Assembly (NCBI GenBank): GCA_050633305.1
Contig: JBOEGF010000009.1
Location: forward strand, 62,314 to 126,313
Reading direction: 5' to 3'
Length of the DNA: 64,000 bases
Source of the DNA: Nannocystales bacterium
GTDB taxonomy: Bacteria > Myxococcota_A > Polyangia > Nannocystales > Nannocystaceae
Made by a program: the position numbers and the translations under genes
Shown here: positions 1 to 53,229 of the stretch, one piece after another
Layout: each line of letters opens with the position of its first letter
Position numbering within the stretch: the stretch's first letter is position 1
Notes under the pieces: generated by a model
What the model was told of the DNA's origin: nothing
Seen by the model: only the letters and a program-made list of their open reading frames with translations
The model's database searches: none

Positions 1-739
1 CGACCGGTGCATGGGCCGGGTCGGGTGCGCGACCCATCGACTCCACGTGCTTCACGATGGTCTCAGCGTCGAGCGGGCGGTTGGCGGTGAAGAAGAAAAA
101 CCGCTCAAAACCCGGTGCGTCGTCGAGTTCGAACGCGTGGAGCACGGCCGTCCCCCCGGACTGGAGTGCGGTGGAGTCCCCCGCCTGCGGGGGGAAGTGG
201 AGGGTCACGGCGCCGGCGCCGTCGAGGGAGACCAGCACGCCGTGCGTCCAGCCGCCCGATCGATAGGAGACCTGGACGGTGTCCCCGGGGGAAACTCTCG
301 ACTCCGAGAGAAGGGGCTCGGCCCGGGTTCCGAGTTTGCGCTCGAGCACGATCGCCGCGTCCCCCTTGATGCGCTCTGTGGCGGGCGGGTCGGCGACGGC
401 GACTTGGGTGCCGGGGACGGGGGCAGCGGGGTCGGACCCTGGTCCGAGTGTCCAAACCAACAATGCGGCGGCGGCAGCAGCCAGGCCACCGGCGGCGGCC
501 CACACCGGCCATGCGAAGCCGGCGGTGGGCTCGGGCTCCAGGGCATCGATCCGGGCTTGGATCCGTCGTGCGATGACCTCGGGCGGGTGCGCGGTCAGAA
601 GCTCCTCATTCGAGGCCTTCAATCGCTCCAAACGAGGGTCTCCGGCCGCCTCGAGACGGGCCCGGACGGAACTCGCCTGGTCCTCGGAGAGTTCGCCGAG
701 CGCGAGTTGCTCGACGAGAAGGTCGGGTACACGGGTCAT
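1..739 (-). CDS. Putative anti-sigma factor (ActD-like): N-terminal helical domain, TM helix, periplasmic DUF4384-like domain; 3' end runs off the window
   Basis: Not in the ORF track; translated by hand from ATG 739, which overlaps the sigma stop (ATGA): MTRVPDLLVEQLALGEL...WPVWAAAGGLAAAAAALLVW (TM)...ERIKGD...GDTVQVSY...SLDGAGAVTLHFP...HAFELDDAPGFERFFFF. No stop before position 1. Confidence 0.8.
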   Translation of the reverse strand, partial: MTRVPDLLVEQLALGELSEDQASSVRARLEAAGDPRLERLKASNEELLTAHPPEVIARRIQARIDALEPEPTAGFAWPVWAAAGGLAAAAAALLVWTLGPGSDPAAPVPGTQVAVADPPATERIKGDAAIVLERKLGTRAEPLLSESRVSPGDTVQVSYRSGGWTHGVLVSLDGAGAVTLHFPPQAGDSTALQSGGTAVLHAFELDDAPGFERFFFFTANRPLDAETIVKHVESMGRAPDPAHAPV

Positions 740-1221
740 GGTGCTGTGGCCTCCAACGCACCGAGGCTCGACTTGAGCTTTCGTAGTCGCTTGCGAACGC
801 CGGACACCGACATCCCGACGGCGTCGGCGGTCTGCTCGAGGGTGAGTCCGTCATGCAGGTGGAGCGCGGCGATCGTGGCGGTCGACTCGGGTTCGTCTCG
901 GAACAGGCGGCCGAGCACCGAGCGTGCGTGGCTTTGGTCGACGGCCTCGGCGGCATCGGCGATCTGCATCAGCCGATCCGTCGCAGGGTCCTGCGGACGC
1001 CGCCGGTGCGAACGGAGCCGGTTCAGGCAGACCCGAGTCGCGGTTGTGTAGAGCAGAGAGGATGTCCCGCGGTCGTGGAGCTGGTCCGCCCGTCGCACGA
1101 TCTGAACGAACACGTCTTGCATGGCATCCAACGCTTCTTCCTCATCTTTCAGGATCGTCTTGCAACGGCGGAGCACCATTGGGCCGTACTTCCGATAGAG
1201 CGATGTGACGTCCAAGGCCAC
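736..1221 (-). CDS. ECF RNA polymerase sigma-70 factor (module A)
   Basis: Region 2: LYRKYGPMVLRRC...DAMQDVFVQI...LLYTTATRVCLNRLR. Region 4 HTH: DGLTLEQTADAVGMSVSGVRKRL. Confidence 0.93.
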   Translation of the reverse strand: MALDVTSLYRKYGPMVLRRCKTILKDEEEALDAMQDVFVQIVRRADQLHDRGTSSLLYTTATRVCLNRLRSHRRRPQDPATDRLMQIADAAEAVDQSHARSVLGRLFRDEPESTATIAALHLHDGLTLEQTADAVGMSVSGVRKRLRKLKSSLGALEATAP

Positions 1222-1231
1222 GCCCGCTGAT

Positions 1232-1261
1232 TACAACACCGACGAGCCCGGCAAGTGTCCC
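1232..1261 (-). promoter_or_regulatory. Putative ECF promoter A1 (GGGACAC-N15-GTGTTGTA), autoregulatory for the sigma
   Basis: Same GACAC-N15-GTGTTG motif as 1274-1303 and 3938-3967; GTGTTG lies 12 nt before the sigma GTG. Confidence 0.7.
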
Positions 1262-1273
1262 GAGTTTTTTTGG

Positions 1274-1303
1274 GTGACACCTGGCACACGCCGCGGTGTT
1301 GAA
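1274..1303 (+). promoter_or_regulatory. Putative ECF promoter A2 (GTGACAC-N15-GTGTTGAA)
   Basis: Motif repeat with identical spacing; GTGTTG lies 10 nt before ATG 1312. Confidence 0.7.
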
Positions 1304-1311
1304 GAGCGTTG

Positions 1312-1866
1312 ATGGCCCATCGCCCCGCGGCATTCCTCTTCGAGGCGATCCTCCTGAGCCTTGCGCTCCTTGCGCTGGGGGAGCCTTGGCGCTGCCTCGC
1401 AGATCCGCAGTTCGTCGCACGCCAGCCAGCACGGGGCCTGGTCCCGCATCTCGAGATCGACCGTCGCGCGGGCGACTCGGTGAACCGGCTCCAGGTCGGG
1501 GCGCAGGTGCGGTCGGGGGACGTGGTCCAGGTGAGCTACATCGCGGCGGGGAATCGCTTCGGAGTTGTCGTCTCGGTGGATGGACGCGGGGCGGTCACGC
1601 TTCACCATCCCAGAGCTGCACATGAGGTGCCCCGGATTAAGGCGCGGGGGGAGACTCCGCTGCCCCACGCCTTCGAGCTCGACGACGCGCCGGGCTTTGA
1701 ACGCTTCTTTTTCGTGACCGGCGCACGGGTTTCACTCGATCCGAGTTCGGTGTTAGAGGCTGCGCACGCGCTGGCCGCAGATGGGATCGTTGCATCTCGG
1801 TACGAGCCGCTACCCTTACCCGCGGAACTAGGCCAGTCCTCGTTTCTGCTGCGAAAGTCCCGATGA
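1312..1866 (+). CDS. Exported DUF4384-like protein, paralog of the anti-sigma periplasmic domain
   Basis: Hydrophobic N-terminus, then GDVVQVSY...SVDGRGAVTLHHP...HAFELDDAPGFERFFFVT matching 1-739; ATGA overlap with the caspase gene. Confidence 0.8.
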   Translation: MAHRPAAFLFEAILLSLALLALGEPWRCLADPQFVARQPARGLVPHLEIDRRAGDSVNRLQVGAQVRSGDVVQVSYIAAGNRFGVVVSVDGRGAVTLHHPRAAHEVPRIKARGETPLPHAFELDDAPGFERFFFVTGARVSLDPSSVLEAAHALAADGIVASRYEPLPLPAELGQSSFLLRKSR

Positions 1867-3929
1867 ACTCCGCTTCTCCTTACCGCGTCAGAGCCTGGAT
1901 TCTGGTGGTGTTTTGGGCGGTCGCGCTTGCCGCGGCCGGGTCGTGGCCTCGCGCTGCGTGGGCGGCGAAGAAAGAAGAGACTGCGCAGGTCGGCGAGGTT
2001 CGCCGGTTCGCGCTCGTGGTTGGGGCGAACGACGGCGGGGCGGAGCGTGTGGTGCTGCGTTATGCGGTTGATGATGCGAACGCGGTTGCGAAGGTTCTCG
2101 TGGAGATCGGGGGCTTGCAAGATGGCGATCGCAGCCTGCTGCAGGACCCGACCCGCGAGAAGCTGCTCTCCGAGGTTCAGCGGCTCTCCAAGCGGATTCG
2201 GGCGGCCCGCGACAGCGGTGCCAACGTCCAGTTCTTCTTCTACTACTCGGGGCACTCGGACGAGCGCGGGTTGCTGCTGGGCTCGGAGCGGATGGAGTAC
2301 CGCGCGCTTCGAAAGGCGATCGACGCGGTGCCGGCGGATGTTCGCCTCGCGATTCTCGATTCGTGCGCGTCCGGAGCGTTCACGCGACTCAAGGGCGGGA
2401 AGAAACGTGCACCGTTTCTCGTGGGGGCCTCGGCGGATGTCAAAGGCCACGCGTTCCTGACCTCCAGCTCGGCCGACGAGACCGCGCAGGAGTCCGACCG
2501 GGTGGGAGGCTCGTATTTCACCCACTACTTCACCACGGGACTGCGCGGCGCGGCCGATGCCGATGGGGACAAGCAGGTCACCCTCAACGAGGCGTACGAG
2601 TTCGCGTTCGACGAGACGCTCGCGCAAACCGAGGCCAGCCGTGGTGGAGCGCAACACGCCGCCTACGACATCAATCTCACCGGGTCCGGTGACTTGGTGC
2701 TCACCGACCTTCGGCACAACACCGCACGACTCGAGCTCTCGTCGGAGATCGGTGGTCGGGTGTTCGTACGGCGGGCCGGAGGTGAACTCGCCGCAGAGCT
2801 GTACAAGCCTGCGGGGAGCGCAGCGGTCTTGCTCGCTTTGGAGCCGGGCCTGTATCAGGTCACTGTCGACGACGGCACCACCTTGCGCCGAGCCAACAAG
2901 GACGTTCGAGCCCGTGGGCGGGTGGTGCTGGCCGCCTCGGAAATGCGGGAGATCGAGCGCGAGACAACGACGACTCGCGGAGCGACGAAGTACGAAGAAC
3001 TCGCCTTCGACATCGGGGCGTTCCCGCCGCTCTCCCTCAACGGGCAGCTCGCGAAGACGAAGAACATCCGGGATACTGAGATTCGCAACACGGCGTCGAT
3101 CTCGCTGCTGTGGGGGCGCAGCGGGGCGGTCCACGGCGTCGCGATGTCGCTGGGCGGCTCTCACGTCCGCGACCGGGTCGAGGGGGCCCAGCTGTCGTTG
3201 TTGGCCAACATCGCGCCGGGCAAGGTCGACGGCGCACAGCTGAGCTACGGGGCCAACATCGCCGGGTCGATGCGCGGGGCCCAGCTGTCCGTCTACAACC
3301 ACGCCAACTCCATGCTTGGTGGGCAGGTCGGTGTCGTGAACTTCGGCCGTGACCTCCGCGGGGCGCAGGTTGGGCTGTTCAACGTTGGCCGCCAGGTGAA
3401 CGGTCTCCAGGTGGGTCTGTTCGCGTTTGCGGACTCGGCGGATGCCCAGGTCGCGCTGTTTTCGGGCACCCGGGAGTTTGGTGTCCGCCCCAGCATCTCA
3501 ACGAGTGACACGGGGCTGGTCGAAGTCGCACTGCGGTTCCCCGCGAAGCGGACCTACTCGGAAATGATCATGGGCCTGCACCCCATGGGCACCGGGGAAG
3601 CGTGGACGTTTGGCTTGGCGTTTGGTGTGCACAATCCGCTCGCTCATCGACTGTTCCTCGACGTGGACCTGGCGTCCCTCGGTGTGGTCAATGGGGTCGG
3701 GTTCCGCGTGCCGCTGGGCGTGATGTCCAAGCTCCGAGTCATGGTGGGGTGGCAGCCCTACGACCGACTCTCCGTGTTCGGCGGCCCGACGGTCTCGTTC
3801 ATGGCCGACCGGATCGATGGCACCACGCGGGACACCGTGCGCCCCGGATATGGCTGGGCCAACACCGTCCACGAAGGCAGCTTCCGTGCTCGCATGTGGC
3901 CGGGCTTCATCGCGGGACTGCGTTTCTGA
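1863..3929 (+). CDS. Exported caspase-family (peptidase C14) protease fused to GAQ/N repeats (LA_2272-like) and a C-terminal beta-barrel
   Basis: Signal peptide ending AAWA; RRFALVVGAN, LRYAVDDA, YYSGHS (His), ILDSCASG (Cys), GSYFTH; repeats GAQLS..N/GAQVG..N; C-terminus GFIAGLRF. Confidence 0.9.
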   Translation: MNSASPYRVRAWILVVFWAVALAAAGSWPRAAWAAKKEETAQVGEVRRFALVVGANDGGAERVVLRYAVDDANAVAKVLVEIGGLQDGDRSLLQDPTREKLLSEVQRLSKRIRAARDSGANVQFFFYYSGHSDERGLLLGSERMEYRALRKAIDAVPADVRLAILDSCASGAFTRLKGGKKRAPFLVGASADVKGHAFLTSSSADETAQESDRVGGSYFTHYFTTGLRGAADADGDKQVTLNEAYEFAFDETLAQTEASRGGAQHAAYDINLTGSGDLVLTDLRHNTARLELSSEIGGRVFVRRAGGELAAELYKPAGSAAVLLALEPGLYQVTVDDGTTLRRANKDVRARGRVVLAASEMREIERETTTTRGATKYEELAFDIGAFPPLSLNGQLAKTKNIRDTEIRNTASISLLWGRSGAVHGVAMSLGGSHVRDRVEGAQLSLLANIAPGKVDGAQLSYGANIAGSMRGAQLSVYNHANSMLGGQVGVVNFGRDLRGAQVGLFNVGRQVNGLQVGLFAFADSADAQVALFSGTREFGVRPSISTSDTGLVEVALRFPAKRTYSEMIMGLHPMGTGEAWTFGLAFGVHNPLAHRLFLDVDLASLGVVNGVGFRVPLGVMSKLRVMVGWQPYDRLSVFGGPTVSFMADRIDGTTRDTVRPGYGWANTVHEGSFRARMWPGFIAGLRF

Positions 3930-3937
3930 TCGGCGGG

Positions 3938-3967
3938 GTGACACCCCGCCCGTGCCACGGTGTTGAA
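3938..3967 (+). promoter_or_regulatory. Putative ECF promoter A3 (GTGACAC-N15-GTGTTGAA)
   Basis: Third motif copy; GTGTTG lies 9 nt before ATG 3975; overlaps the inverted repeat at 3932-3950. Confidence 0.7.
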
Positions 3968-3974
3968 CTCTACG

Positions 3975-5222
3975 ATGGCCAACGCGACCCTCCTTCTCGC
4001 TTCGTTCCTCGCCGCTCCTGTCGCTCCGTCCCCGGCCGCGCCACCTGCGGCGGAAGCTCCGGTGGCCGCGCCCGCACCCGCGCCCGCACCTGCCCCCACT
4101 GCCGAGGTCGCTGCGCCCGAGACCGCCCCCGAGGGCGAGTCGCCTGTGGAACAAGACGCTTCGAGTGGAGCTGCGGAGGCGCCCGAGGAGGCGCCCGAAT
4201 CGGCAGAACAGGTGGCTGACCCACCACCGGTCGAAGAGGCGGGGGATGAGACCGAGGCCGGCACCGCGCCGGAACCCAGCACCGACGCGGCCACCCCCGA
4301 GGCCTCCGAGTACAAGGACGTCCCGTTCAACATTGGGTTGTTTCCGTCGGTCTCACTCAACGCCAAGCACAAGGGCGAGCGAGTCCGAAACAACGTGTCG
4401 CTCGGCCTGCTGTGGACCCGTGCGGCCCGCGTCGAGGGGCTGACCGCGGCGGGCGGGATCACGGTCGTGACCGAGTCCATGGAAGGCGTCGCTGCGGGGC
4501 AGTTCGGGAACATCAACCGTGGCGAGATGGAAGGCGTGCAGGCCTCGTTGTTCTTCAACACGGCCCAAGACCTGCGCGGGGTCCAGGCGAGCCACGGATT
4601 CAACTGGGCCACAGAGGTCCGAGGCGCCCAGTTCGGGATGGTCAACGCCGCGGGAACGGTTCGCGGGGTGCAGTTCGGCCTGGTCAACGTCGCCGATGAA
4701 GCCGACGCCTCCTTCGCGCTGATCCCCGTCACGCGAAAAGGGGGCTTTCATCCCGAGGTCTTCACCAGCGACACCGCGATGATCAACCTCGGGTTTCGCC
4801 TTCCGGCCAAGTACACGTACATGTTCGCCTCCGTTGGGCTGCAGCCCCTGGGACGCCTCGAGGATGGTCGTCTGTCGACCTCCGAGGGCGCCGGGCGAGC
4901 CTGGGAAGCTGGGCTGGGTTGGGGCGGCCACATCCCCATGGGCAAGCGGCTCTCGATGGACCTCGACCTGGGCGGCTTCATCGTCACGGACTCCCTGCAA
5001 TGGGCCGGTCCGGTGGGAAGCATGAGTCGCTTTCGCATGCTGCTGAACTACAGCTTCGCCGACCGGTTTACGGTGTGGGGAGGCCCCACGCTCACCGCGT
5101 TGGTCGACGATGCGGACCGCGGGATCGACCGACCCGGCTACGGCTGGGTCTCGGGTCGGTACGAAGACCACGACGTCCGGGTCCGGGTGTGGCCCGGCTT
5201 CGCTGCCGGCGTGCGGTTTTAG
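3975..5222 (+). CDS. Exported Pro/Ala/Glu-linker protein with LA_2272-like repeats and C-terminal beta-barrel; paralog of the caspase C-terminal half
   Basis: YKDVPFNIGLFPSVSLN vs YEELAFDIGAFPPLSLN; WGGPTL..RPGYGW..WPGFAAGVRF vs FGGPTV..RPGYGW..WPGFIAGLRF. ATG 3975 preferred over GTG 3960, which lies inside the promoter motif. Confidence 0.85.
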   Translation: MANATLLLASFLAAPVAPSPAAPPAAEAPVAAPAPAPAPAPTAEVAAPETAPEGESPVEQDASSGAAEAPEEAPESAEQVADPPPVEEAGDETEAGTAPEPSTDAATPEASEYKDVPFNIGLFPSVSLNAKHKGERVRNNVSLGLLWTRAARVEGLTAAGGITVVTESMEGVAAGQFGNINRGEMEGVQASLFFNTAQDLRGVQASHGFNWATEVRGAQFGMVNAAGTVRGVQFGLVNVADEADASFALIPVTRKGGFHPEVFTSDTAMINLGFRLPAKYTYMFASVGLQPLGRLEDGRLSTSEGAGRAWEAGLGWGGHIPMGKRLSMDLDLGGFIVTDSLQWAGPVGSMSRFRMLLNYSFADRFTVWGGPTLTALVDDADRGIDRPGYGWVSGRYEDHDVRVRVWPGFAAGVRF

Positions 5223-5226
5223 GACC

Positions 5227-8200
5227 TCACGCGTCCTCTTCTTCAGCCTCTTCGCCCCGGCGGGGCAGGGGGGCGAGGAGGGTCTCGACGTCTTCCTCGG
5301 ACAGGCTGAATCCGGTGCGACCGGCGGTTCGACCCGCGTCGGCCTGGACCGCCTGAGCCAAGGCTCTTTTGTGCTCTTGCAGCGAGAGGATTCGTTCCTC
5401 GACGCTGCCCTCGCAGACCAGCCGGTAGACGGTGACGGGGCGCTCCTGACCGATGCGGTGCGTCCGGTCGATGGCCTGCTGCTCGACCGCAGGGTTCCAC
5501 CAGGGGTCGTAGAGGATGACCGTGTCCGCGGCGGTCAGGTTCAACCCGGTACCGCCGGCCTTGAGCGAGACGAGCATGAGCGGGACCTCTTTGGCCTGGA
5601 AGCGATCGACGAGCGGCTGGCGCTTGCGGGTCCGACCCGTGAGCATCAAGTGAGGCTGCGCCTTGGCGTCCAGACGGGCCGCGATGAGGTCGAGCATTTT
5701 GGTGAACTGAGAGAACACCAGCACCCGGTGACCCGACGCGAGCAGCGGCTCGAGCAAGGACATGAGCTCTTCGATCTTGGACCCTTGTTCCGGCGGATCG
5801 TCGATTCGCGGGGCGAGACGGGCGTCGCAGCAGATCTGACGCAGTCGCAGCAACGCCTCGAGGACCACGATGCGGCTGAGGCCCAGGCCCTTGGCCCGAA
5901 GCGCTTGGCGAACCTCGTCGCTGACGACGCGGCGAACGGACTCGTAGATCTCGCGCTCGCGGGGACTGAGCACGACGCTGCGGACCACCTCGGTCTTGGG
6001 CGGAAGCTCCTCGAGCACCGCGTCCTTGGTACGCCGCAGCAGGAAGGGGGCGACTCGTCGGCGTAGGCCCCCAACAGCATCAGCCGCGCCACGTTCGGCG
6101 GGGCGCGCATAGGCCCGGCTGAACTGGGCCTGCGAGCCGAGCAATCCCGGAGCGACGAAGCGGAAGATCGACCACAGCTCGAGCAGGCTGTTTTCGATCG
6201 GCGTACCGGTGAGCGCGAGGCGCTGCCGGGTGCGAATCGCTCGGGTGGCGCCTGCGATCTTGGCGCGGGGGTTCTTGATCGCCTGGGCCTCGTCGAGCGC
6301 GACCACGTGGTACTGCGTCTCGCGAAGAATGTCGTCGCGCAGCAGGGTCGCGTAGCTTGTCAGCACCACGTCGAACTCGTGGATGCGGTCGACGGTCTCG
6401 GCACGATCGGGGCCGTGGGCCATGCCAACACGCAGCTGAGGGGTGAACAGGGCGGCTTGTTGGGCCCAAGTCCCGAGCACACTGACCGGTGCGACGACCA
6501 GGCATGGACGGTCGAGGCGGCCGGACTCGCGCTCGGCGAGCAGGTGCGCGAGCACCTGAACGGTCTTTCCCAGACCCATGTCATCGGCGAGGACCCCACC
6601 GCAGTGGGTGCGCCGCAGCAGCTGAATCCAGGCCAGGCCGACACGCTGGTAGTCCCGTAGCTCGCCGCGGAAACCCTCGGGGATCTCGGCGTCGTCTGGA
6701 CCGACACCGTCGACGAGTGTCTGGCCGAGTGTGGCGAGGGCGTCGTTGCCCTGCCAGCGATCGACGTCCAGCTGAGCCAGCCAGGCGGCGTCGTAGGTGG
6801 ATGCGCGCAGACGCAGGTTGGGTCCGCCGCGCGCGTCCGTCATGGACACGAGGCCGTCGAGCAAGCGCTGAACCTTTTCGGCGGGAACCCGCAGCAGGGT
6901 GCCGTCATCCAGACGCAGCGTGACCGAGGCGCCCACGACGATGCGATCGTGTTGCAGGCGTCCGGCTCCGATCGCGTCGAGGAGAACCGGGAGGAGGTTG
7001 ACCCGGCGCGGCCCATCGGGCCCCTCGACGTCGACACCCAGCTCGAAGGAAAACCAGCCCTCGGGGTCCGGATCCTCGTCGATGTCGACGTACCAAGCTG
7101 AGGGCTCGGTTGGGGCGAGGGCCTCGGGGGCGGAACCGGTGCGTTGCCAGCCCCGAGACTCGAGCACGGGCAGGATGTCGAGCAAGGTGAGCCAGCCGTC
7201 CGCATCGAGGGCGGCAGAACCGTCGCTCGCGGGCGCGGGCAGGCCGAGGTCTTCCCACGAACTCAGGGCGAAGCGCTCGGCCTCGGAGTCGCGCGGGCTG
7301 ACGCGGAGAACGGAGCCATCCCACGCGCAGATGTCTGTGGCGCCGCCTTGAAGCGGGACCGAGACCTCGCCGTAGCGAAATGCGATGACCGGACATCCGT
7401 CGCTGTGGCTGTCGGGGAGGTGCAACACCGGGGTGAGCCGTGTGAAGCCCGATTCGACGGTTCCCAGCAGTGGGATGGGTAGGCCGAGCGCTTCGACGCG
7501 CGCCCGGAGGTCATCCCCGGGGTCGACGTCGATGGGGATGTCCGCCGACTGGTACACGGCACGGAGGCGGCGCAGGGGGAGCGCGGTCTCCATGAGGCCG
7601 CACGCGCCGCTCGCCGGATCGACCCAGACCGGGGCGTCGAGAGGAAGCGCGACGTGCTCGGGGTTTTGGGCGGTGAGCCGCAGGTGCTGGGTGCCATCGG
7701 GGGCGGGGTGCCAGCGGGTCTGGCTGGTCTCGGGAGCCTCGGTCCAGCGTAGCGGTGGCCCTCCCCAGCGTTGCCATCGGACACGCCCGGTTTCGACGAA
7801 CCGCCGAAACAGAGCGGTCGCGCCCTCGCCCGGCGGGAGCGTCTCGTCGTCCTTGGGGGCGAGCGTGCGCAGGGCGTGCCACAGGTCGAGGTCTTCGCGC
7901 AGGACTCCGGCGGGGATGACGGTTTGCGCGGAGCTGACGACCAGCCGAGCGGTCCTGGGCTTGCTGCGGCCGTCCTCCCGGAGGGGCCCGACACGTGGGG
8001 CGATGCGAACGCGCCATCCGCCCTCGCGCTGAAGCCCGATCACGTACCGAACCTCTCGCCCGGCAGGTTCGGGCAGCTCGGGAACCGGCAGCCGAGGCAG
8101 GATGCGGGTCTGCCCGTCGGTCGTCTCGGCCTCTGCCTGTGCGAGCCAGTCGATCAGGGCCTTGCGGGTCGCGACCTCCTTGGCGAGCGAGGCGTCGGCG

Positions 8201-8469
8201 AGGGTGTGGAGTGCTGCCGCGAGGTGGCGGCAGTCGTAGCGGGTGTCGCAGGAGCACTGGCCGTGGACAGCGGTGCGTGCGAGCTGGAACTCGACCGTGT
8301 GCGTGCGCTTGATCCCGACTTTGGCCGTGTACCAGCCGCGCATGCCGTCCGCCTCGACGCAGGACACGACAGCGCCACCCTTGGCGTCCTCGAGCCCGCG
8401 TTGCCAAACGACGGGCTCGAACTGGCGCGATAGGGAGTCGAGGTCGAGTTCGATTTCGATTTCACTCAT
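5227..8469 (-). CDS. SWIM zinc finger / SNF2-family helicase-ATPase
   Basis: CSCDTRYDCRH (SWIM); LADDMGLGKT, DEAQAIKN, ALTGTPIEN, VFSQF, AGGTGLNL, DPWWNP, QAIDRTHRIGQ. Confidence 0.95.
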   Translation of the reverse strand: MSEIEIELDLDSLSRQFEPVVWQRGLEDAKGGAVVSCVEADGMRGWYTAKVGIKRTHTVEFQLARTAVHGQCSCDTRYDCRHLAAALHTLADASLAKEVATRKALIDWLAQAEAETTDGQTRILPRLPVPELPEPAGREVRYVIGLQREGGWRVRIAPRVGPLREDGRSKPRTARLVVSSAQTVIPAGVLREDLDLWHALRTLAPKDDETLPPGEGATALFRRFVETGRVRWQRWGGPPLRWTEAPETSQTRWHPAPDGTQHLRLTAQNPEHVALPLDAPVWVDPASGACGLMETALPLRRLRAVYQSADIPIDVDPGDDLRARVEALGLPIPLLGTVESGFTRLTPVLHLPDSHSDGCPVIAFRYGEVSVPLQGGATDICAWDGSVLRVSPRDSEAERFALSSWEDLGLPAPASDGSAALDADGWLTLLDILPVLESRGWQRTGSAPEALAPTEPSAWYVDIDEDPDPEGWFSFELGVDVEGPDGPRRVNLLPVLLDAIGAGRLQHDRIVVGASVTLRLDDGTLLRVPAEKVQRLLDGLVSMTDARGGPNLRLRASTYDAAWLAQLDVDRWQGNDALATLGQTLVDGVGPDDAEIPEGFRGELRDYQRVGLAWIQLLRRTHCGGVLADDMGLGKTVQVLAHLLAERESGRLDRPCLVVAPVSVLGTWAQQAALFTPQLRVGMAHGPDRAETVDRIHEFDVVLTSYATLLRDDILRETQYHVVALDEAQAIKNPRAKIAGATRAIRTRQRLALTGTPIENSLLELWSIFRFVAPGLLGSQAQFSRAYARPAERGAADAVGGLRRRVAPFLLRRTKDAVLEELPPKTEVVRSVVLSPREREIYESVRRVVSDEVRQALRAKGLGLSRIVVLEALLRLRQICCDARLAPRIDDPPEQGSKIEELMSLLEPLLASGHRVLVFSQFTKMLDLIAARLDAKAQPHLMLTGRTRKRQPLVDRFQAKEVPLMLVSLKAGGTGLNLTAADTVILYDPWWNPAVEQQAIDRTHRIGQERPVTVYRLVCEGSVEERILSLQEHKRALAQAVQADAGRTAGRTGFSLSEEDVETLLAPLPRRGEEAEEEDA

Positions 8470-8821
8470 GCGGTGCGTTCAGCCGCGGTCCGAGGCGCGG
8501 TGGCATTCGCAGCCGGCGAGGCCGGGCAAATGCTGGTCGCGAGAATTTCGGCAAGCTGTGGACCCCGACACGTCTGTGCGTGTTGAAGCCGAGACCGTTC
8601 CCGGCCCGGAGGGGGCGGATGGCTCGGAGTGTTCGCCGGGGTTTTCGGTCACGAGGCGGGAGGATACCGCGTACGGAGGGTTCTAGCAGCCTGTGGTGAA
8701 ACCCGCGGCCGGGTCTCGCGTTGGATGCCGCGCGCTCGCGGCGGAGCCTGAGCAGCCCGCGGAGCGAGGGCCCGGGCGAACCACGTCGATCGCGAGAAAC
8801 GCGGCGTTGGGTTTGGCGACC

Positions 8822-9868
8822 CTACTGCCGTCCATTCGGGTTGTAGCTCATCCAGTTCAGCCCGTTGGAGCGGTTCACGAGATCGTTGTAGGCGCGGCTG
8901 ACCTTGTCTGGCGAGCCCTCGACCATCCATCCGGCGCTGCCTCCGAGGCGCTGGAGCTCCGACTTGGTGAAGGCCTTGTTGTCGCGCTTGCGGCGCATCA
9001 GCTCCTTGGATGCCTTGAGGTAGCTCTCCGCGGTGTCGATGAACGAGTCGAACATCATCACCGTGTCCGCTTCTGCCTCATTCGCTTTGACGTACTTGTC
9101 CGCTTCTTCGAGGGCAGCGTCGTAGGTCTTGAGCGCCTTGTCGAAGCGGTCCAGATCGAGCGCGTCGAGCGTGGGCGCATCTCCGGCGGCCATGAGCGCC
9201 TTCGCCTGGGCCATGACGTTGGCCTGTTGGAAGCGCAGCTTTCGACCCTCGTCCTTTTCGAGTTGTTCGAGACGCCGGGCCTGAAGCGCGTCGTTCTGTT
9301 CCCCGACCGCCTTGCGCAGCGCCTGGTCCGCGTCTTGGAATGTGGCGATCGCCTTGGCCAGCGGGTCGTGCATCTCCTTTCCCTTGGAGAACCCGTCGTC
9401 TTTGTAGTCGTCGTGGTCGTAGTACTCGTGAGCGTCGTGGATGAGCGGCTGCACGGCTTTGTAGGCCGCAAGCCACGCGTCGCCGGCCTTCTCGAGTCCT
9501 TCGTCATGGGGCTCGGACGCCTTCGCGGTTGCGATGCCCTCCACACAGGATGCGTTGAGTTCGTGGTCGTAGATCCCGTAGACGTTTCGCTCTTTCCCGG
9601 TGACACCCTTTTCGATGTCGACCCAGCTGGCGTAACGATCGGCCGCGTCGAGGATTGACGACGAGGGCCCGTTGATGCAGTCGATGTAGCCGTCCAGTTT
9701 GATGCCGAGCTTGTCGTCCTCGGTGAGCTCTGCATTGGCAGCCGCGTTGCTCGCTTCGCCGACAGCTTCGGCTCCTTTCTCCAACAGGTCGGTCACCTGG
9801 TCGCAGCCAGCAGCCGGGAGTGCGAGAATCGACAGGAGGGCGGAAGCGTAGATTCGTGGTCGGAGCAT
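8822..9868 (-). CDS. YiiG/DUF3829-like helical lipoprotein
   Basis: Lipobox AAGC; KLDGYIDCIN, YYDHDDYKDDGFSKGKEMH and YNDLV resemble DUF3829 (from recall). Confidence 0.7.
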   Translation of the reverse strand: MLRPRIYASALLSILALPAAGCDQVTDLLEKGAEAVGEASNAAANAELTEDDKLGIKLDGYIDCINGPSSSILDAADRYASWVDIEKGVTGKERNVYGIYDHELNASCVEGIATAKASEPHDEGLEKAGDAWLAAYKAVQPLIHDAHEYYDHDDYKDDGFSKGKEMHDPLAKAIATFQDADQALRKAVGEQNDALQARRLEQLEKDEGRKLRFQQANVMAQAKALMAAGDAPTLDALDLDRFDKALKTYDAALEEADKYVKANEAEADTVMMFDSFIDTAESYLKASKELMRRKRDNKAFTKSELQRLGGSAGWMVEGSPDKVSRAYNDLVNRSNGLNWMSYNPNGRQ

Positions 9869-32697: not shown

Positions 32698-33229
32698 CTT
32701 CTCGTCTCCTCACGGCGTCGAGTCGGTCGACGCTGGCCTGAAATGCTTGCCGGGCGGAGCGGAGCCGCGAGGCCACGGTGTTGGGGTTCTCGCCGAGGAT
32801 CTCACCGATCTCGGCGGCGGTGAGCCGCTCGAGCTCACCGAGAACGAATGCCTCCCGTTTGGCTTCGGGCAGGCTCTCGAGGAAGTCCGCGAGGAATGCC
32901 TCGGCCTCTCGGTAGGAGACGGCCTCGTCTGGCGAGGGCGTGGTGTTCACGCTGGGCTCGAACGCCGCCTCCTTGCGCTCGGAGCGAAGATGCTTCCGCT
33001 TGTGGTGCAGGACGACGTGGCGGGTGATGCCGCCGATCCACGCGCGGGCGGAGCGGCTGGGGTCGAGTTCGTCGATCTTTCGCTGCACGATGATGAACAC
33101 CTCGTGCACCACGTCTTGAGCGTCGGCTTGGGGGATGCCCAGGTACCGAGCTGTGCGCCATGCAAACTCGACGTGGTCCTGGTAGAGGATCGCGATGGGG
33201 GTCGCAGCCGACTGGGGCGAGGCGCTCAA
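32690..33229 (-). CDS. ECF sigma factor (module B)
   Basis: LYQDHVEFAWRTARYLGI..DVVHEVFIIV..WIGGI; LPEAKREAFVLGELE..EIGEILG.NPNTVASRLR; TTG start overlapping the upstream stop. Confidence 0.92.
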   Translation of the reverse strand: MSASPQSAATPIAILYQDHVEFAWRTARYLGIPQADAQDVVHEVFIIVQRKIDELDPSRSARAWIGGITRHVVLHHKRKHLRSERKEAAFEPSVNTTPSPDEAVSYREAEAFLADFLESLPEAKREAFVLGELERLTAAEIGEILGENPNTVASRLRSARQAFQASVDRLDAVRRREGG

Positions 33230-52035: not shown

Positions 52036-53229
52036 GTGACCTCCAGCGCCGCTCCCTCTCAATCCGCGTTTCGCGGTCTCTACGACGAGCATCACGCCTT
52101 CGTCTGGGCGGTGCTGCGTAAGCTCGGTGTGCCGGAGCGGGACGCGGAGGACGTGATGCAAGAGGTGTTCTTGGTCGTCCATCGCAGGCTTGGCGCCTTC
52201 GAGGGTCGGTCGGCGTGGACGACCTGGCTGTATGGCATCACGACGCGGGTCTATTGGAACTACGCCCGGCGGTTGCGCAGTCGCCCGCAAGCGAGCTCGT
52301 CTGCATCCTCGCTTCGCTTGGTCGATCCCAGCGCCGACCCCGAGCGATTCGCCCAGCGGCGAGAAGCCAGCGCAATGCTCGAGGCGCTGCTCGGCTCGCT
52401 CGATGTGGACAAGCGTACTGCGTATGTCCTGCACATCGAAGGGCTCTCTGCGCCGCAGATCTCCGCCATCACGGGGGTCAAGACGAGGACCGTCTACTCT
52501 CGGCTACGTGCCGCGAAGGCCGAGGTCGAAGCAAGTGCGCGGCGGGTTCAAGCCCGAGCACGCAATGACGACGCGGTCCGTCGGTTGGCGCAGCGGTCCA
52601 CGGCTCACCCGCCCAAACGGCTCCGCGCGCGTGGTTGGGCTGCGCTTGCACTGCGCAGTCCGGAGCTCGCGGGCTCGCTCGGAGGGGCGGCTTCGACGAC
52701 GACGCTTCCATGGGTGGGCGTGCTGGGCGGTGTTGCGATGACGGTCTTTGTGGTGCTGAAGAGCGGCGCCGAGCCGTCCGCACCCACGCTCGGACCGGTC
52801 GTTGCCGAGGTGGCCTCCCCCGAGCGCCCCGTCTCGACGGCTCGGGCGACCTCCGCACCGGCCGTGCCCGCGCCGGCCTCGGCCGTGCCCGCTTCTGTCG
52901 CGGCTTCGAGGGTGCCAGCCTCTCCTGCACCCCGAGCGCGTGTCCGCTCGGCATCGCCGAAGCACACCGCGACCGCGCACTCCCCCGAACCGGTGCTCGG
53001 ACCCCTGCCGCGGGCTCGGATCGAGCTCAAGGCGGGCAGGGCCGCCGACGCGCTGGCGTTGTTGAAGGCGCATGCGCGTGTCGAACCGGACAGTCCACTG
53101 GCCACGGAGCGCACCGCCATGATGCTGCTCGCGTTGTGTTCCCTCGACCGTGTCGACGAAGCGAAGGCGCTTGTCGAAGCCGACTCGGCCGCGCTCCCGG
53201 CCTCGTGTGTCGCGACGCCCAGTCGCTGA
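52036..53229 (+). CDS. ECF sigma factor fused to an anti-sigma-like TM/Pro-rich/TPR-like extension (module C)
   Basis: FRGLYDEHHAFVWAVLRKLGV..EDVMQEVFLVVHRRL..WLYGI; TVYSRLR; then TM WVGVLGGVAMTVFVVL and ARIELKAG..HARVEPDSPLATER..LALC..C. Confidence 0.85.
   Translation: MTSSAAPSQSAFRGLYDEHHAFVWAVLRKLGVPERDAEDVMQEVFLVVHRRLGAFEGRSAWTTWLYGITTRVYWNYARRLRSRPQASSSASSLRLVDPSADPERFAQRREASAMLEALLGSLDVDKRTAYVLHIEGLSAPQISAITGVKTRTVYSRLRAAKAEVEASARRVQARARNDDAVRRLAQRSTAHPPKRLRARGWAALALRSPELAGSLGGAASTTTLPWVGVLGGVAMTVFVVLKSGAEPSAPTLGPVVAEVASPERPVSTARATSAPAVPAPASAVPASVAASRVPASPAPRARVRSASPKHTATAHSPEPVLGPLPRARIELKAGRAADALALLKAHARVEPDSPLATERTAMMLLALCSLDRVDEAKALVEADSAALPASCVATPSR

Follow-up and report, generated by a model that had tools for sequence, protein, structure and literature searches.

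We analysed a stretch of 64,000 nucleotides (nt), hereafter the window, from a Nannocystales bacterium (GenBank assembly GCA_050633305.1, contig JBOEGF010000009.1, here C9:62314-126313). The genome comprises 11.0 Mb in 90 contigs with a G+C content of 66%, and the public genomes closest to it are Nannocystaceae/Myxococcota. Two sets of genes occupy the first 5.2 kb of the window, namely a sigma factor gene and its anti-sigma factor gene on the minus strand, and genes for proteins of 184, 688 and 415 amino acids (aa) on the plus strand, the second of which encodes a caspase-domain protein (Table 1). The sigma protein is small and scores above the cutoff of the family model for extracytoplasmic function (ECF) sigma factors (TIGR02937), as expected of the ECF class (sigma-70 group 4); its region 4 helix-turn-helix matches remain below cutoff. 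Here, we report on a bipartite motif, GACAC-N15-GTGTTG, that occurs three times among these genes and very probably serves as the promoter element of this sigma factor family.

A bipartite motif at the start of the window

The three copies were named P1 (GGGACAC-TTGCCGGGCTCGTCG-GTGTTGTA, minus strand, 1232-1261), P2 (GTGACAC-CTGGCACACGCCGCG-GTGTTGAA, 1274-1303) and P3 (GTGACAC-CCCGCCCGTGCCACG-GTGTTGAA, 3938-3967). A preliminary description of the window had placed the copies at these positions and the count bears it out, with exactly three matches in 64 kb against 0.03 expected and none of 100 shuffled sequences reaching three. Allowing one mismatch yielded no further site in the whole window (3 found, 1.13 expected). 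No GACAC-N15-GTGTTG was found near the other two ECF-like sigma genes of the window (about 32735-33205, minus strand, and 52075-52533, plus strand), whose products are 22% and 29% identical to the sigma factor studied here. P2 and P3 share the top score in the genome, 26.2 bits, for the matrix described below.

The end of GTGTTG lies 12 nt before the start codon of the sigma gene (GTG at 1221), 10 nt before the ATG of the 184-aa gene at 1312 (7 nt before a TTG at 1309) and 9 nt before the ATG of the 415-aa gene at 3975, in agreement with the 9-12 nt first described. The spacer measures 15 nt in P1, P2 and P3, again as described. The accompanying statement that the spacer sequences are unrelated needs qualification, as P2 and P3 have 9 of 15 bases in common, mostly G+C-rich bases beside the -10 element. 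Alignment of the P2 and P3 flanks revealed no conservation beyond the two blocks.

The 90-nt region between the sigma and 184-aa genes is filled by P1 and P2, back to back, and a T tract. No sigma-70-like promoter was detected in 600-5400, this region included, and because a further promoter would not fit into the 7-12 nt from motif to start, the region has no promoter candidates but the motifs. The A/T fraction between the divergent -35 elements is 0.80 in the window and 0.64-0.73 in the related loci L001 and L002, against a background of 0.32-0.33. The back-to-back arrangement around a T7 run is present as had been noted; the run itself is not conserved, and only A/T-richness recurs in the closest relatives. 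The stretch at 1262..1271 may be a shared upstream (UP-like) element. A/T-rich DNA at ECF promoters is where the CarD-CarG complex of Myxococcus xanthus binds, according to the part of the report drawn on here (PMC6061681). Across L001-L006, L009 and the window, the A/T fraction of the corresponding stretch was observed to range from 0.35 to 0.80 (background 0.29-0.35), with cores such as GAAATTT and GAGATTTT.

Conservation and shape of the element in related loci

The sample of relatives consisted of 80 loci encoding proteins with 49-75% identity to the sigma factor; they belong to Myxococcota, Spirochaetota, Fibrobacterota and a few further groups. Starting with the three window sites, a matrix was grown that settled on GGT(G/A)ACA(C/G)-N15-(G)GTGTTnnA. 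Its score exceeded 8 bits in 68 of the 79 scorable upstream regions, L075 having too little upstream DNA, and a site of at least 15 bits was located in the 200 nt upstream of the sigma gene at 66 of the 80 loci, in several phyla. A divergent site within 300 nt was found at 29 loci, and 18 sites lay elsewhere; 11 of these 18 are on the sigma strand, 330-1375 nt upstream, before an inserted gene. Nine of these 11 belong to loci without a proximal site, which brings the loci with a sigma-strand upstream site to 75 of 80 (66 + 9). The remaining five are L014 and L032, with none, L037 and L058, with sites below 15 bits, and L075, with no upstream DNA.

Since the matrix was trained on the sites that it counts, shifted spacers and untrained sites were used as controls. 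Altering the spacer of the same half-matrices by 1 or 2 nt left 0-2 upstream sites, no divergent site and 0-2 others in 1.65 Mb, and the 47 divergent and other sites had been kept out of matrix training. The motif is found upstream of the sigma gene and is kept in its orthologues, as is expected of an autoregulated ECF promoter. Proteins of about 200 aa ending in Phe are recurrent extra targets in other phyla (8 of the 18 elsewhere sites), and genes resembling the 415-aa gene are preceded by analogous sites in L039 and L047.

The usual order in relatives is sigma, anti-sigma and caspase on one strand. Cultured relatives with the cassette include Enhygromyxa salina (L007, L008) and Paraliomyxa miuraensis (L003). 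Among L001-L015, a single site was found in six loci with the caspase gene on the sigma strand (L007, L008, L010, L011, L012 and L015). Seven Myxococcota loci (L001-L006, L009) have a divergent homologue of the 184-aa gene, as in the window, and all seven carry a second, back-to-back motif copy; the caspase gene is also divergent in all six of them with enough DNA, the sequence of L009 ending before it. In L013 (Spirochaetota), a divergent 177-aa gene has its own motif copy while the caspase gene remains on the sigma strand. A cassette gene that leaves the sigma operon takes a motif copy along.

That the repeats represent a chance similarity, or a hairpin in RNA or DNA such as a terminator or attenuator, we hold to be extremely unlikely. 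At P2, ACACC can pair with GGTGT (-13.7 kcal/mol), yet the folding z-scores of the three sites are -1.70, -0.16 and +0.55, the two halves pair in only one of them, and no Rfam family was detected in 1-9000. Both the shuffling result and the conservation across phyla with free spacer sequence also speak against it. A hairpin or structured RNA was rejected on the folding scores and the Rfam scan.

Column statistics were calculated from 113 unique sites. The consensus comprises a -35 element GGT(G/A)ACA(C/G), a free spacer of 15 nt and a -10 element GTGTTnnA. The left block is strongest at G2, T3 and C6 (1.7-1.9 bits) and the right block at G24-T28 and A31 (1.4-1.9 bits); the spacer columns hold 0.01-0.22 bits, so that a fixed length is combined with a free sequence as in an ECF promoter. 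Matrix position 4 is G in 73% and A in 26% of sites, giving (G/A)AC at positions 4-6, and GT is near-invariant at 24-25 and 26-27. An AAC-like -35 core and a GT-containing -10 core, the cores of ECF promoters as described in the part of PMC6061681 used here, are both present, with (G/A)AC apparently replacing the usual AAC.

The same columns bear on a rival explanation, in which the sites are operators of a dimeric regulator that binds ACAC-N15-GTGT as an inverted repeat, its halves spaced by roughly two turns of the helix. In its favour, eight Spirochaetota loci carry a fully symmetric AACAC-N15-GTGTCAC-N15-GTGTT, and the halves of the motif are complementary over 4 bp. Against it, mirrored conservation of half-sites was not found: the mutually complementary part is only ACA(C)/(G)TGT, 3-4 bp, and GGT (positions 1-3), T28 and A31 have no mirror partner. 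The observed complementarity equals the value predicted from column frequencies, so the halves do not covary, and the GTGTT end faces the gene at every site. Further, 7-12 nt to the start codon and no sigma-70-like promoter leave no room for a separate promoter, and the cross-phylum tie to an ECF sigma gene is as seen with autoregulated ECF promoters. The columns point to a directional element rather than a symmetric operator, and we rate the dimeric operator as very improbable.

In all eight of these Spirochaetota loci (L023, L024, L025, L027, L029, L038, L040 and L042) two divergent promoters were observed to use one common -35 heptamer, GTGACAC, which is GTGTCAC on the opposite strand. It lies about 50 nt upstream of the sigma genes (e.g. 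L023:5947-5953) and has a -10 element on either side at a distance of 15 nt, and the divergent gene encodes a protein of about 200 aa of the Phe-ending family. One -35 element could serve two divergent promoters in this way because it is a near-palindrome (GGTGACACC).

The -10 element recognised by the ECF factor sigma-E of Escherichia coli spans -12 to -7. If GTTnnA (26-31) occupies these positions, transcription would start at matrix positions 38-39, or two bases earlier if the first GT is taken as -12/-11; purines are mildly enriched at positions 38-39 (G+A 0.76-0.79), 9-10 nt after GTGTTn. In the window, starts are predicted near 1224-1227 (minus strand), 1308-1312 and 3972-3975, i.e. 7-9 nt after GTGTTG, and the predicted 5' untranslated regions would measure about 0-6 nt, with P2 and P3 starting at or next to the ATG and P1 3-6 nt before the sigma GTG. 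Besides the 9, 10 and 12 nt in the window, the gap between -10 hexamer and start codon is 8-16 nt at five other candidate sites of the genome and 12 nt in the two nearest relatives, L001 and L002; elsewhere among the relatives it is mostly 26-33 nt, often with a Shine-Dalgarno-like GGAG or AGGA. Near-leaderless mRNAs, which would follow from standard ECF geometry and be limited to this lineage, seem to us an evenly balanced proposition.

Further sites and gene products

In the source genome, what distinguishes the 15-nt spacer is the position of its sites, not their frequency. Six of the nine exact N15 sites lie at most 22 nt ahead of the first start codon in a coding-like open reading frame (ORF; in-frame stop within 11 codons upstream), compared with 0 of 13 at spacer 14 and 0 of 9 at spacer 16 when these controls were inspected singly. 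A stricter automatic filter for start proximity, later replaced by inspection and looser criteria, passed 3 of 9 N15 sites and 1 of 77 at spacers 10-14 and 16-21. In the genome-wide matrix scan (at least 15 bits), 8 of 20 sites lay close to a start, compared with 0-2 of 10-24 when the spacer was shifted, and among 207 GTGTT sites located 5-25 nt before plausible starts, a -35 score of at least 6 was obtained for five at the right spacing and for 0-1 at each of eight shifted spacings.

The preliminary description had taken the three copies to define the regulon of the module at the window start. Against this speak about seven more candidate sites elsewhere in the genome (Table 1), from which the regulon appears broader than the module, and a paralogous sigma factor with the same motif. 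The paralogous sigma/anti-sigma pair (C10:851576-852824; L087:6577-7894; 58% and 39% identity) has no caspase gene beside it. A second full-length caspase gene stands alone at C22:149414-151414, with the variant motif and an A7 run upstream.

The paralogue raises the alternative that the motifs are of this ECF type and are read mainly by the paralogous sigma on C10, or by both equally, with no private regulon. The two proteins are 58% identical over 156 residues with nearly the same C-terminal DNA-binding region; an exact GACAC-N15-GTGTTG stands 22 nt before the start of the paralogue, which has its own DUF4384-like anti-sigma; and the second caspase gene, on C22, has a GAACAC-N15-GTGTTG site. 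Set against this, the motif accompanies the orthologue of the adjacent sigma and the caspase cassette across the 80 loci, and the paralogue has no caspase next door. We find this alternative improbable. The earlier proposal that the motifs are the cognate -35 and -10 elements of the adjacent sigma stands insofar as conservation, spacing and orientation tie them, as ECF-type promoters, to the sigma family; it is not certain that they belong to the adjacent sigma alone, because the paralogous pair carries the same motif.

The gene products of the locus were compared with domain and structure collections. Relatives of the sigma protein match it from residue 1, its N-terminus being MA(L/V/I)D, and no relationship closer than family level to solved ECF sigma factors was found (best PDB match, E about 1e-4). 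In the anti-sigma, a sigma-binding part at the N-terminus is accompanied by a single membrane helix and, in the periplasm, by a DUF4384-like domain in which LDDAPxFE is invariant. DUF4384 (PF14326) gave sub-threshold matches in 9 of 15 anti-sigma orthologues (13.6-21.1 bits, cutoff 27) and no match in the window proteins at E up to 1. The 184-aa protein is 47% identical to anti-sigma residues 132-230. In related loci, the caspase gene adjoins the sigma and anti-sigma genes. The NCBIfam LA_2272 repeat was matched by the caspase protein (32.8 bits, cutoff 25) and by the 415-aa protein (25.1 bits), the latter being 37% identical over 331 residues to caspase residues 371-688; this repeat was the only match above cutoff when the anti-sigma, 184-aa and 415-aa proteins were searched with Pfam and NCBIfam.

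Two sequence signatures were observed in these proteins. The motif (Y/F)ELDDAPxFERFF occurs in the DUF4384-like domain of the anti-sigma (2-739, minus strand), the 184-aa protein (1312-1866, plus strand) and the paralogous anti-sigma (L087:7049-7894), and its L, D, A, P, F and E are invariant in an alignment of 18 sequences from several phyla. Both the caspase protein and the 415-aa protein end in PGF(I/A)AG(L/V)RF, which we take to resemble the C-terminal signal of outer-membrane barrel proteins; many extra motif targets in other loci likewise end in Phe. Downstream, a 1080-aa SNF2-family helicase gene (5227-8469, minus strand) is convergent with the 415-aa gene; its N-terminal SWIM zinc-finger match is weak and sub-threshold (18.1 bits, cutoff 19.6), and it probably bears no relation to the sigma module.

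Table 1. Features of the window and candidate motif sites elsewhere in the source genome
Feature	Position	Strand	Details
P1, predicted autoregulated promoter of sigma/anti-sigma operon	1230..1263	-	-35 GGGACAC (1255-1261), -10 GTGTTGTA (1232-1239); 17.6 bits
P2, predicted promoter of divergent operon of 184-aa gene and caspase gene	1272..1305	+	-35 GGTGACAC, -10 GGTGTTGAA; 26.2 bits
P3, predicted internal promoter in 45-nt gap after caspase stop	3936..3969	+	-35 GGTGACAC, -10 GGTGTTGAA; 26.2 bits
A/T-rich 10-nt stretch between divergent extended -35 elements	1262..1271	.	CAAAAAAACT on sigma strand; T7 run 1265-1271
ECF-type sigma factor gene, 161 aa, GTG start	736..1221	-	Pfam Sigma70_r2 7.3e-14; TIGR02937 sigma70-ECF 62.2 bits, cutoff 42.9
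Membrane anti-sigma factor gene	2..739, continues beyond window start; 270 aa in genome	-	ORF; kept directly after sigma gene in related loci
184-aa membrane-anchored protein gene	1312..1866	+	domain paralogous to periplasmic DUF4384-like domain of anti-sigma
688-aa secreted caspase-domain protein (Peptidase_C14) gene	1863..3929	+	Pfam PF00656 3e-13; LA_2272-type repeats; ends in Phe
415-aa protein gene	3975..5222	+	paralogous to the caspase protein's C-terminal half; LA_2272-type repeats; ends in Phe
Site before 486-aa secreted PSD2/DUF1585 protein	C2:125695		GTGTT(G/C) to start codon 16 nt
Site before 226-aa DUF4097 lipoprotein	C10:101551		gap 8 nt
Site before 441-aa beta-lactamase-family lipoprotein	C38:42344		gap 15 nt
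Site before 461-aa S41 peptidase lipoprotein	C22:87008		gap 9 nt
Site before 506-aa S41 peptidase lipoprotein	C18:621044		gap 12 nt
Site before paralogous ECF sigma	C10:851528		gap 22 nt; 58% identical; own DUF4384-like anti-sigma, no caspase
Site before second caspase	C22:151590		gap 11 nt; 47% identical; variant -35 GAACAC, 12.7 bits

Interpretation and known systems

Taken together, P1-P3 very likely serve as promoters for RNA polymerase with the adjacent ECF sigma bound, and probably also for polymerase with its 58%-identical paralogue. P1 would provide positive autoregulation of the sigma/anti-sigma operon, P2 would drive a divergent operon of the DUF4384-like protein and the secreted caspase-domain protein, and P3 would add expression of the 415-aa protein. 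In most relatives, sigma, anti-sigma and caspase lie in this order behind one such promoter; here the caspase gene would have moved to the opposite strand with its own promoter copy. The presumed trigger is a sigma set free from its membrane anti-sigma.

Several points weigh against this interpretation. The -35 element of P1 is the weakest of the set (17.6 against 26.2 bits) and lacks the conserved T, and a sigma gene with a GTG start behind a predicted leader of 3-6 nt is awkward for translation. The matrix was trained on sigma-upstream sites that it then counts, a circularity controlled only by the spacer shifts and untrained sites, and the related loci are not mutually independent. ACAC...GTGT is a 4-bp inverted repeat, such as a dimeric regulator could bind. 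The paralogous sigma with the same upstream motif means that the adjacent sigma need not be the sole or main reader. Finally, the exact 11-base core is found genome-wide at 9 sites with N15 and at 2-13 sites with other spacings; the preliminary description had expected the motif to exceed its background frequency across the genome, and the bare core does not, the N15 sites being set apart by their proximity to starts.

A wider proposal would unite a sigma, an anti-sigma and an outer-membrane caspase in one module common to Myxococcota, Spirochaetota, Fibrobacterota and others, with a promoter whose -35 element is nearly palindromic. The sigma would count the caspase among its targets and be released when the caspase cuts LDD-AP, in positive feedback, and the whole regulon would be leaderless here because the promoters moved right up to the start codons in this Nannocystaceae-like lineage. 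With a conserved caspase gene next door, the Asp-Asp followed by Ala-Pro in the DUF4384-like domain may be a cleavage site. As a whole, we regard this proposal as speculative and rather unlikely.

If the promoter interpretation is true, it shows which sequence is recognised by an ECF sigma family that is unstudied and occurs in several phyla, and it supplies a first list of targets, among them S41 peptidases, outer-membrane-type proteins and a caspase-type protease. What part a bacterial caspase plays in envelope signalling could then be tested directly with a simple reporter, and a strict, unusual motif with a near-palindromic -35 element might offer an orthogonal promoter/sigma pair.

Full-text literature searches in a limited collection yielded no description of the sigma/anti-sigma/caspase cassette or of the motif. 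Likewise, the portion of the ECF group descriptions consulted (supplement of PMC7826278) neither lists a GTGTT or TGACA motif nor mentions caspase or Peptidase_C14. As far as these descriptions go, the family resembles ECF25 (Casas-Pastor et al. 2021, PMC7826278) in its taxonomy, namely Deltaproteobacteria, Spirochaetes (ECF25s3) and Fibrobacteres (ECF25s13), and in a single-pass anti-sigma at position +1, which contains a DUF4384 in ECF25 and a DUF4384-like domain here. It differs in that the promoter listed for ECF25s1 and ECF25s2 is GGAAC / GTC, which the motif here does not match, and in that no caspase neighbour is mentioned there; the portion consulted gives no motif for the Spirochaetes and Fibrobacteres subgroups. 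The predicted promoter of ECF250 in the same portion (TGTCAC or TGTCCCTTT at -35, GTTATATA at -10) is close to the Spirochaetota form of the motif (GGTGTCAC ... GTGTTATA). ECF250, unlike the family here, is described as confined to Firmicutes (Bacillaceae, Paenibacillaceae) and is associated with DUF4367/DUF4179 anti-sigmas and ABC transporters.

The type III-E CRISPR accessory module Csx29/Csx30/RpoE, in the part of its description used here (bioRxiv 10.1101/2022.08.17.504292), also combines a caspase-like protease with an ECF-sigma-binding protein, and some Csx30 proteins have a DUF4384 C-terminal domain. The Csx29 module is cytoplasmic and RNA-guided, whereas no CRISPR genes are present here and the protease is a secreted Peptidase_C14 protein; the resemblance would concern a possible sigma release, not the promoter.

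The closest parallel for the promoter itself is found in M. xanthus, where the parts of the DdvS report considered here give AAc at -35 and cGT at -10 as common to ECF promoters (PMC6061681). Compared with the DdvS promoters (GTAA-N16-CGT), the motif has a different sequence (GGTGACAC ... GTGTTnnA) and a near-palindromic -35 element, and its starts are predicted from sequence, whereas those of DdvS were confirmed by 5' rapid amplification of cDNA ends. As in the DdvS promoters, -35 and -10 parts with AAC-like and GT-containing cores are separated by a fixed spacer, and several copies occur in one locus, before the sigma/anti-sigma operon and a few nearby targets. In kind, the element is an ordinary one, an autoregulated bipartite ECF promoter.

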